NCBI GenBank assembly: GCA_000004695.1
Contig: CM000152.2
Location: 3,904,001-3,968,000 of the forward strand
DNA length: 64,000 bases
Origin: Dictyostelium discoideum
Lineage: Eukaryota
Direction of reading: 5' to 3'
Of the stretch, positions 17 to 2,218 are shown piece after piece. The notes under the pieces are model-generated. The model made no database searches and was not told the DNA's origin. It worked only from the letters and a program-made list of their open reading frames with translations. Each line of letters starts with the position of its first letter. The first letter of the stretch is position 1. The position numbers were made by a program, and so were the translations under genes.

Positions 17-2218
17 TTATTTGTTTAACATTTTATTTAAAAGTTTTTGATTGATTTGAAAAGAGTTTATATGTTGAAATAGTTCATCTTCATCTATATC
101 GGTTGGTAAATGAGTTAATAAGGTCATACAAACATCAAAATCTCCAAATTCTAAATCTTTACTGTACATTTTTAAAATTCCTAAAGCTGTTTGAAAGATG
201 ACCACTTCACCATCCAAAAATATTGTATCCCAAACATGAGAGGCCACATCCAAAGGCAATGCTTTAGAGAACACGGTTAAAACCCAATCTATCATGAAAA
301 TGTCTGGTTGGATACCCAATTCTTTGAGATGTTTTTGAATTTTTGGTAAATTTTGAGCCATTAATTGATCCATTGTATTCATATAAACTGCCATTTGATC
401 GAGATTCATAGTGTAGAATGTCATATAACAAGGATTATTTAAAAAATTTGATAAACAAACGAATGAATTGAATTCGTCAAGTATTAATAAAAACACAGCC
501 GCTAAATAAGACATACCTTGGACATAACCCACATCAGGTCTATAACAAACATATGCCTCCAACACATTTGCCAATGATTGGTGTAGTGGACCTTCATCTT
601 GAAATATTGATAACATTGGAAATGTACGTGGTAAATCTAAATGAATTAAACTAACAGTTTTCTCTCTACCTAAACTTCTAGCTTCTGATTTTTGTTTTGC
701 TCTCTCTGCACGTGCACCAAAAATTGAAAATAGTTCAGGTGTTATATTCAAATCGTTACCAATTAGCAATGGCCAAACTTTACTACGCACCAATGATGGA
801 ATACCTTGTAAAACCATCTCCCTACATTTTTTAGTACCCTTTCTTTTGTCCCAATTTGGTATCATATCTTCATTCCATATCTTTAATGATTCCTCCATAC
901 GTCTTTCTCTTTCTTTTCTATTTTTATCTTTTTTCTTTTGTTCTTTTTCATTTAATGTTAATGATTGCCCAAATACATTTCTTCTATTTGATATTGGTGT
1001 ATTACCACTATTACCATTGATACTATTATTATTACTATTATTATTATTATTATTACTACTACTATTATTACTATTATTAATTGTTAATGAATCAAGTGAT
1101 GATAATGAACCATTGCTAGATGTTGATGAAATTGATAATGTATCATCAAGTGATGACACTCTTAAATGACCATTTTGACTATTATTATTATTATTATTAT
1201 TATTATTATTATTATTATTATTATTATTATTATTATTATTATTATTATTATTATTATTATTATTATTATTATTATTATTATTATTATTATTATTATTATT
1301 ATTATTATTATTATTATTATTATTATTATTATTATTATTATTTTGACTATTATTATTATTATTATTATTACTATTTAAATTTGGTGATGGTGGTGAACTA
1401 ATTGAACCATTACTTCCATTTAAAGTGGTGGCAATACCACTACCACTTGTATTTAAAAATGATTTTAATGATGATGTTGTCGCTGTGAATGCATTCACAA
1501 ATGAATTTTTAATTGGTGGTGTTGTGCTACCACCAATTGGTGTATTTGTAATAAATGTAGTTGCTGTATTTGATGAATTTGATGTATTTATAGTTGTAGT
1601 TACAGTTGTAGTTGATGATGATGATGATGATGATGTTATATATTGTGTATTTAAAGGAACTTGTTGATTTGATATTGTTGGTGGTGGTGTATCTAAATAT
1701 ATATTTGGTGTATTTGTTATAGTAATTTTTGGCATTTCTCTACAAACCATTTTTAAGGCATCAATTTCATCTTTATCCATTGATAGAGTTTGTAAGAAAT
1801 TATTTAAAATTGTCATTGGTAGAATCCTACAATATAGTATAAATGATTGCATATCTAAACTGTTAAATAAAGATTTATGTTCACATAGTGGTTTCCATCT
1901 TGAACAAACCCTTTTCACTATGAATAAATCTGAATATTCTAATTTTGAAAAGATTCTAATTAAAATTTCACTATCTAATAATAATGTTAAATTTGTACCT
2001 GCCAACTCTGAAAATGAAAATAACTGTCTATCTCTAGTTGGTTTCTTTGTTGGTGTCGTTGTTGTTGTATCTATACCATTGCTATTATTACTATTATTAC
2101 TATTACTACTATTACTATTGTTCCTATTATTTGTATTTGATTTTATAGGTGTTGATGTTGATACTGTCATATTATTATTATTATTACTATTATCTGTTGG
2201 TAATAAAGTATATGACAT
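17..2218 (-). CDS. F-box + TBC (Rab-GAP) domain protein, 733 aa, apparently single exon
   Basis: Uninterrupted ORF. N-terminal F-box-like motif LLLDSEILIRIFSKLEYSDLFIVKRVCSRWKPLCE. C-terminal TBC domain with arginine-finger motif IHLDLPRTFP and glutamine-finger motif YVQGMSY. Central (AAT)n tract encodes a ~55-residue poly-Asn run. Confidence 0.8.
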   Translation of the reverse strand: MSYTLLPTDNSNNNNNMTVSTSTPIKSNTNNRNNSNSSNSNNSNNSNGIDTTTTTPTKKPTRDRQLFSFSELAGTNLTLLLDSEILIRIFSKLEYSDLFIVKRVCSRWKPLCEHKSLFNSLDMQSFILYCRILPMTILNNFLQTLSMDKDEIDALKMVCREMPKITITNTPNIYLDTPPPTISNQQVPLNTQYITSSSSSSSTTTVTTTINTSNSSNTATTFITNTPIGGSTTPPIKNSFVNAFTATTSSLKSFLNTSGSGIATTLNGSNGSISSPPSPNLNSNNNNNNNSQNNNNNNNNNNNNNNNNNNNNNNNNNNNNNNNNNNNNNNNNNNNNNNNNNNNNNNSQNGHLRVSSLDDTLSISSTSSNGSLSSLDSLTINNSNNSSSNNNNNNSNNNSINGNSGNTPISNRRNVFGQSLTLNEKEQKKKDKNRKERERRMEESLKIWNEDMIPNWDKRKGTKKCREMVLQGIPSLVRSKVWPLLIGNDLNITPELFSIFGARAERAKQKSEARSLGREKTVSLIHLDLPRTFPMLSIFQDEGPLHQSLANVLEAYVCYRPDVGYVQGMSYLAAVFLLILDEFNSFVCLSNFLNNPCYMTFYTMNLDQMAVYMNTMDQLMAQNLPKIQKHLKELGIQPDIFMIDWVLTVFSKALPLDVASHVWDTIFLDGEVVIFQTALGILKMYSKDLEFGDFDVCMTLLTHLPTDIDEDELFQHINSFQINQKLLNKMLNK
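1181..1345. repeat. (ATT)n microsatellite inside the TBC gene CDS (encodes poly-Asn on minus strand)
   Basis: ~55 uninterrupted ATT units. Confidence 0.95.

Follow-up and report, generated by a model that had tools for sequence, protein, structure and literature searches.

We know of no animal or yeast system in which Skp1, or the Skp1–Cul1–F-box (SCF) ubiquitin ligase, is linked directly to Rab regulation by way of a TBC domain. The closest analogs there are FBXO8, which concerns Arf6, and two proteins that concern Rabs, Rcy1 and Roy1. The yeast F-box proteins Rcy1, an effector of Ypt31/32, and Roy1, an inhibitor of Ypt52, bind their Rabs together with Skp1 and without Cul1 (PMC3084679). FBXO8, a metazoan protein with an F-box and a Sec7 ARF guanine nucleotide exchange factor (ARF-GEF) domain, is believed to recruit ARF6 to SCF through its Sec7 domain, so that ARF6 is ubiquitinated (PMC6727740). 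Among TBC proteins, human TBC1D14 is a Rab11 effector that binds GTP-Rab11; it showed no GTPase-activating protein (GAP) activity on 47 Rabs despite possessing both catalytic fingers, and the double mutant R472A/Q508A did not differ in behavior from the wild type (PMC3365497). Here we analyze a Dictyostelium discoideum gene that joins an F-box to a TBC domain of this same TBC1D12/TBC1D14 type. It occupies positions 17–2218 on the minus strand of a 64,000-nucleotide stretch of genomic DNA (hereafter the window; positions 3,904,001 to 3,968,000 of the forward strand of contig CM000152.2, assembly GCA_000004695.1).

The fusion itself is on record. Boland et al. 2022 (PMC9485057, Fig. S3) list a candidate D. 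discoideum F-box protein with ‘RabGAP’ in the ‘SR/other’ column. The entry reads ‘TLILDSEILIRIFSKL-EYSDLEIVKRV-CSRWKPLCEHK’, which matches the F-box of the window when PDF machine-reading errors are allowed for; the sequence common to both is TL.LDSEILIRIFSKL-EYSDL.IVKRV-CSRWKPLCEHK, and by this match the entry is almost certainly the gene described here. It is placed in class ‘ab’ alone (UniProt annotation and BLASTp), appears in none of the four Skp1 co-immunoprecipitation (co-IP) data sets, and is given without subfamily assignment, distribution or function. The same list holds proteins that join an F-box to RasGEF (gefG), RhoGAP (gacFF) or ARF (DDB_G0278443); these partner domains differ from TBC, and the comparison is one of listing. 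An initial annotation of the window, made from the sequence alone, had called the F-box/TBC fusion unusual, a description that does not hold for Dictyostelium, where the fusion was already listed beside these three. A pan-eukaryotic survey of TBC proteins that includes D. discoideum never mentions ‘F-box’, our literature search found no functional paper on a Dictyostelium F-box and TBC protein, and Dictyostelium and TBC1D14 came up together merely as incidental citations. The architecture is already known, being catalogued and UniProt-annotated. Our analysis contributes the assignment to TBC1D12/14, a distribution across Eumycetozoa that goes back to a single origin, a conserved extension following the F-box, and the finding that the F-box lacks a proline.

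A single gene encodes both domains

The coding sequence at 17–2218 (minus strand) is a single uninterrupted open reading frame (ORF) of 733 aa plus stop, intronless and with no stop across its 733 codons, and it is complete, as an in-frame stop lies four codons 5′ of the ATG. An exact look-up of the 733-aa protein in the searched protein collection returned no entry. The first 63 residues (2030–2218, minus strand) form a low-complexity leader that is not conserved; it cannot be aligned to non-dictyostelid orthologs and shares 13 of 44 residues with the Dictyostelium purpureum ortholog. Family-specific sequence begins after the leader.

The fusion is a real single gene, which the initial annotation had located correctly. 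That two neighboring genes, or a mis-assembly, were joined as one ORF is extremely improbable: the frame runs through 733 codons without a stop, the same collinear architecture is found in a single exon in D. purpureum and in exon 1 in Acytostelium, and transcript-sized contigs of 1.4–1.6 kb, obtained in three sequencing runs and in a Joint Genome Institute (JGI) sample, carry both domains in one ORF. The N-terminal part therefore does not belong to a separate upstream gene, since it shares its ORF or exon with the TBC domain here, in D. purpureum, in Acytostelium and in the transcript contigs, and a read-through of two genes is refuted by this cross-species collinearity.

Assignment of the TBC domain to the TBC1D12/TBC1D14 family

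The TBC domain (aa 449–724; 47–874, minus strand) is recognized by the Pfam RabGAP-TBC model PF00566 over aa 477–689, with 201.8 bits against a cut-off of 25.2. Its best match in the PDB is human TBC1D14 (2QQ8, E = 3.6e-78), and identity to human TBC1D14 and TBC1D12 over the domain is about 44–46%. A search with aa 411–733 returned TBC1D12/TBC1D14 proteins of animals and amoebae at 38–48% identity, ranked below a few much closer relatives; the named matches in the listed top 120 are either TBC1D12/14 or generic Rab-GAP or hypothetical proteins. For a compact ortholog (P0003), an AlphaFold2 model with a predicted local distance difference test score (pLDDT) of 84 has 2QQ8 as its best Foldseek match (TM-score 0.87) and 33 TBC structures at E ≤ 0.001. 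Judged by sequence, neighbor-joining (NJ) tree and structure together, the TBC half is a eumycetozoan ortholog of TBC1D12/TBC1D14.

Both catalytic fingers named in the initial annotation are present. The Arg finger lies in IHLDLPRTF (aa 525–533; 620–646, minus strand; R531 at nt 626–628) and the Gln finger in YVQGM (aa 565–569; 512–526, minus strand; Q567 at nt 518–520). All 11 aligned relatives keep R531 and Q567 unchanged, and with them D528, L529 and the whole of Y565–M569. IHLDLPRTF aligns with IKLDISRTF of TBC1D14, in which YVQGM is identical, and human TBC1D14 and TBC1D12 have the same Arg and Gln finger motifs at the same 36-residue spacing. The human proteins also share with the amoebal one a charged helix in front of the TBC domain. 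In D. discoideum this is the basic, charged segment LNEKEQKKKDKNRKERERRMEESLKIW (aa 422–448; 875–955, minus strand), which is conserved across orthologs and forms part of a long helix, H122–158, in the P0003 model. The difference lies further upstream, where the animal proteins have no F-box in their Pfam lists and the F-box module takes the place of N-termini that bind ULK1 and TRAPPC8 in animals (PMC3365497, PMC4741301). The invariance of the fingers throughout the clade suggests that they matter here, but finger motifs alone are no proof of catalytic competence, since TBC1D14 keeps both and is inactive on 47 Rabs. Of the ‘catalytically competent’ domain proposed at the outset, the fingers thus stand and the competence is unproven.

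The F-box and its conserved extension

The F-box spans aa 79–122 (1853–1984, minus strand), and the string LLLDSEILIRIFSKLEYSDLFIVKRVCSRWKPLCE given for it in the initial annotation begins at aa 79. It is preceded by a conserved segment, RQLFSFSELAGTNLT (aa 64–78; 1985–2029, minus strand), with which the family-specific N-terminal module starts and in which G74 is invariant in the alignment of the module. Both Pfam models score above threshold: F-box-like PF12937 with 33.6 bits against a cut-off of 24.3 (aa 83–122), and F-box PF00646 with 25.7 bits against 20.5 (aa 80–117). A chance match is not a credible explanation, because 9 of 11 relatives match F-box models independently, the other two being N-terminally truncated fragments, and because a profile of the N-terminal module matches solely F-box proteins in the PDB (KDM2B, Skp2, FBXW7, FBXL17 and FBXO2, at profile positions of about 10–60). 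The top PDB match is the proline-less KDM2B. Within the helix-3 hallmark ‘VCSRW’, residues V104, C105, R107 and W108 are invariant in the alignment.

A Leu-Pro (LP) pair at the start of helix 1 is common in F-boxes, though not universal. In the present family its proline is missing without exception: all 15 members have LD, LE, FH, FN, LV, IH or LG at this position, LD being the D. discoideum variant. By its conserved features the F-box is real, but it is not the ‘textbook’ example that it had been taken for, because of this missing proline; the Pfam scores, too, clear their thresholds by only a moderate margin. According to PMC3098594, Schmidt et al. 2009 proposed that the LP proline decides association with Cul1. 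The rule is disputed, as proline-less FBXL14 and FBXL18 have been found with Cul1 (PMC3098594).

Predicted structure was used for the F-box merely as a consistency check, given an AlphaFold2 model of the isolated N-terminal module with a pLDDT of 62 and Foldseek E-values that are not significant. The model places three helices at the positions expected of an F-box, and its best Foldseek matches are Skp1-bound F-boxes, superposed at 1.1–1.5 Å over about 40 residues with E-values that do not reach significance (best 0.41). In the full-length ortholog model the F-box helices reach a pLDDT of about 77–85.

Directly after the F-box lies a stretch of about 40 residues (aa 123–163; 1730–1852, minus strand) that is conserved at least as well as the F-box itself. 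Relative to the distant ortholog P0003, identity is 51% in this extension, 40% in the F-box and 64% in the TBC domain. Its pattern is DMQSF..Y.R.LP..(I/V)L..F...L....EI.A.K..C, with invariant M, Q, R, L, P, L, F, L, E and A columns, and it is predicted as three helices in the P0003 model (pLDDT about 67–84). Neither Pfam nor the PDB sequences gave a match beyond the F-box, so the extension corresponds to no known domain in these collections. Together, F-box and extension make up a helical N-terminal module of about 100 aa that is common to the close relatives.

Distribution and origin of the fusion

Exhaustive profile searching of 1.84 billion cluster representatives found the whole N-terminal module in about eight, all confined to the F-box/TBC orthogroup. 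Every module-bearing protein that reaches past the linker continues into a TBC domain of the TBC1D12/14 type; other matches cover the F-box part alone. An NJ tree of TBC domains groups the F-box carriers with two truncated fragments in one clade (183 of 200 bootstraps), which lies inside the TBC1D12/14 family. Named members are D. purpureum, Synstelium polycarpum and Acytostelium subglobosum, accompanied by several environmental transcripts; a truncated sequence from Clastostelium recurvatum (Protosporangiida) also falls within the clade. TBC1D12/14 proteins of Balamuthia and Pelomyxa lie outside it and have no F-box. An F-box is likewise absent from the metazoan TBC1D12/14 relatives among the matches listed, which supports the earlier suggestion that this is not a standard metazoan architecture.

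The D. purpureum ortholog (P0121, XP_003287161) carries both halves in a single exon and is 91% identical in the TBC domain, while exon 1 of the Acytostelium ortholog covers aa 1–380, extending through the F-box and two-thirds of the way into the TBC domain. Of the transcript contigs P0003–P0008, those examined have a GC content of 44–47% and so do not come from AT-rich Dictyostelium. Since the F-box carriers form one clade, the fusion arose once, probably in Eumycetozoa; with these members in the clade, it is ancient within this group and has been kept under purifying selection.

A word-indexed homology search missed the D. purpureum ortholog and returned nothing for the N-terminal 134 aa, whereas the exhaustive profile search recovered the orthologs. 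As an indexed search can miss a protein 91% identical in its TBC domain, its negatives should not be read as absence.

Two further observations concern the family. In the sister group of the NJ tree (P0013 and P0031), the same type of TBC domain is preceded by EF-hand/EH domains (PF13499, PF12763); from these sequences, TBC1D12/14 proteins seem to have had their N-terminal accessory module swapped between lineages. A. subglobosum has two gene models with the F-box module, SAMD00019534_120030 and SAMD00019534_079810, the latter partial (P0002 and P0122), which suggests a lineage-specific duplication.

The linker and its poly-Asn tract

Between the N-terminal module and the charged helix lies a disordered N/S/T-rich linker (aa 164–421; 956–1729, minus strand), identified by composition, by alignment gaps and by low confidence in the ortholog model. 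The counted stretch, aa 166–440, is 64% N+S+T, and the equivalent segment in the P0003 model has a pLDDT below 50. Linker length varies between species, from about 27 aa in P0003 and other compact orthologs to about 260 aa here, and the region is gapped in the alignment. A microsatellite of (AAT)n encodes a poly-Asn block at aa 284–348 (1175–1369, minus strand; 61 AAT codons), within which 54 uninterrupted Asn residues (aa 293–346) are all encoded by AAT. The initial annotation had described a poly-Asn tract of about 55 residues and an S/T/N-rich linker, in good agreement with these counts. A functional role for the poly-Asn tract was considered and rejected: the tract is nothing but an (AAT)n repeat, and the D. 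purpureum ortholog lacks the block.

Two patches of the linker are conserved with D. purpureum, the remainder evolving fast: ‘STTPP..I.NS...AF.ATTSS.KSF.N’ (aa 230–256; 1451–1531, minus strand) and ‘NGH.RVSSLDDT.S.S.TSSNGS’ (aa 349–371; 1106–1174, minus strand), the second of which is partly conserved in Acytostelium as well (‘HIRVPS...’). These patches may be phosphorylation or docking motifs; inspection of both by eye revealed no evident motif of the LC3-interacting region (LIR) type.

Possible roles of Skp1 binding

The reading we favor, with a rough probability of 0.45, is that the gene encodes a Skp1-coupled regulator of the Rab11 family, in which Skp1 would control the stability, activity or Rab binding of the protein itself, through either a non-SCF complex or SCF self-turnover. 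The TBC domain would engage a Rab11-family Rab on recycling or contractile-vacuole-type membranes, acting there as a GAP or, by analogy with TBC1D14, as a non-catalytic effector. The F-box would dock Skp1; the disordered linker, inflated in D. discoideum by the (AAT)54 repeat, tethers the N-terminal module to the charged helix and TBC domain. Most likely, Skp1 binding would then govern the regulator itself, in a non-SCF Skp1 complex such as those of Rcy1 with Ypt31/32 or Roy1 with Ypt52, or in SCF self-turnover. Control of the regulator itself is preferred because the tether is long and flexible and because the LP proline, a proposed Cul1 determinant, is absent. The initial annotation had offered SCF-regulated turnover and substrate recruitment, both of which are plausible; a non-SCF Skp1 complex like that of yeast Rcy1 or Roy1 is a third option that it left out. 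Rcy1 and Roy1 likewise combine an F-box, a Rab and Skp1 in the non-SCF regulation of endosomal traffic (PMC3084679), and the Rabs of Rcy1, Ypt31/32, are orthologs of Rab11, the family bound by TBC1D14. Neither yeast protein has a TBC domain or any sequence relationship to the present one outside the F-box, so the presumed likeness is one of function alone.

Several points weigh against this reading. Docking of Skp1 is deduced from the F-box sequence; the model of the isolated module has a pLDDT of 62, and its Foldseek E-values are not significant (best 0.41). Both the Rab specificity and the choice between GAP and effector are extrapolated from one human homolog of about 45% identity, and the catalytic fingers, invariant across the clade, suggest that catalysis may matter here. 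The proline rule is contested, proline-less FBXL14 and FBXL18 having been found with Cul1 (PMC3098594). The absence of the protein from the four Skp1 co-IP data sets weighs little, because these sets contain just 7 of the 54 F-box proteins predicted (PMC9485057).

Two other explanations of the F-box have to be set against a Skp1-controlled regulator, and we consider each of them unlikely. In one, the protein would be a classical SCF substrate receptor in the manner of FBXO8, its TBC domain capturing a GTP-bound Rab and presenting it to Skp1–Cul1–Rbx1 for ubiquitination. A genuine F-box does stand N-terminal to a small-GTPase-binding domain; FBXO8, with its F-box and Sec7 domain acting on ARF6, is a direct precedent (PMC6727740); the Dictyostelium F-box proteins with RasGEF, RhoGAP and ARF partners suggest a recurring theme; and some F-box proteins without the proline associate with Cul1 (PMC3098594). 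Like the present protein, FBXO8 has its F-box ahead of a catalytic domain for small-GTPase regulation, but it has Sec7 instead of TBC, concerns Arf instead of Rab, is restricted to metazoa and arose independently, so it serves as an analog alone; the 733-aa protein has no Pfam match to Sec7 and is therefore not of the FBXO8 family. Being disordered and ranging from about 27 to about 260 residues, the tether is not the rigid linker of a receptor and is a poor fit to a fixed geometry, and a role as a rigid SCF substrate receptor is less likely for the protein. The LP proline is absent from every member, the protein is missing from Skp1 co-IPs in which CulA, CulE and Rbx1 were all recovered (PMC9485057), and the two known yeast pairs of F-box protein and Rab, those of Rcy1 and Roy1, are non-SCF.

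The other explanation takes the F-box as vestigial or repurposed, the N-terminal module being no Skp1 binder but a lineage-specific targeting or partner-binding domain that replaces the TRAPPC8- and ULK1-binding N-terminus of animal TBC1D14. In its favor are the missing proline, Pfam F-box scores that exceed their cut-offs by only 5–9 bits, the absence from four Skp1 interactomes, and an extension which matches nothing known and is no less conserved than the F-box; the EF-hand/EH module of the sister clade also suggests that targeting modules can be exchanged at this position. Against it stand the invariant V-C-x-R-W hallmark of F-box helix 3, the best PDB matches, proline-less KDM2B included, which are Skp1-bound F-boxes, and the limited reach of co-IPs that saw 7 of 54 predicted F-box proteins.

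A more far-reaching proposal, which we regard as speculative, is that Eumycetozoa possess a Skp1-dependent Rab switch, either a TBC-based counterpart of Rcy1 and Roy1, in which a non-SCF Skp1 complex would gate Rab11 binding, or an SCF receptor that ubiquitinates a captured GTP-Rab. If such a switch existed, the oxygen-regulated glycosylation of Skp1 in Dictyostelium would be linked to recycling-endosome, contractile-vacuole or autophagy traffic. More generally, a functional F-box would connect Skp1 or SCF directly to Rab regulation through a TBC domain, and would make Dictyostelium a tractable model for how the level or activity of a TBC1D14-type regulator of autophagy and recycling is controlled.

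Genomic neighborhood

The DNA around the F-box/TBC gene has a G+C content of 10–30% and long AT-rich simple repeats, as is typical of dictyostelid genomes. Head-to-head with it lies a gene for a PH and protein-kinase (Akt/PKB-like) protein (8677–9771, plus strand). In Acytostelium, a gene with PH, Pkinase and Pkinase_C domains occupies the same head-to-head position next to the F-box/TBC ortholog (L005, 2090–3498, minus strand), and this conserved microsynteny supports orthology. The spacer between the two divergent genes of the window (2219–8676) measures 6.4 kb, has 9–15% G+C and holds solely low-complexity ORFs; it strikes us as long for a compact genome. It includes an ATT triplet-repeat run (a poly-Ile ORF) at about 2235–2330, just 5′ of the start codon, and long poly-T and poly-A runs.

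No tRNA genes were found within the 64-kb window. Between 23.7 and 40.3 kb there is no ORF of at least 90 aa, because this region holds a tandem array (25800–36300, plus strand) of about 10 copies at a spacing of 1.0–1.3 kb, each a very small gene of two exons. The first exon reads ATGACACTTTTT, with a GTAAG donor behind it, and the second (e.g. 29586–29849) codes for a peptide of about 85 aa that is rich in Gly, Ser and Cys and has ...CCGSPCCGI at its end. The array presumably resembles the hssA/2C/7E family of Dictyostelium. Other large ORFs noted in the window are those for a protein of 884 aa that has a kinase domain at its C-terminus (19962–22616), for a zinc-type alcohol dehydrogenase (22681–23709) and for a phospholipase-D-like protein (49171–51510), and an 880-aa low-complexity ORF with no Pfam match (40292–42934).

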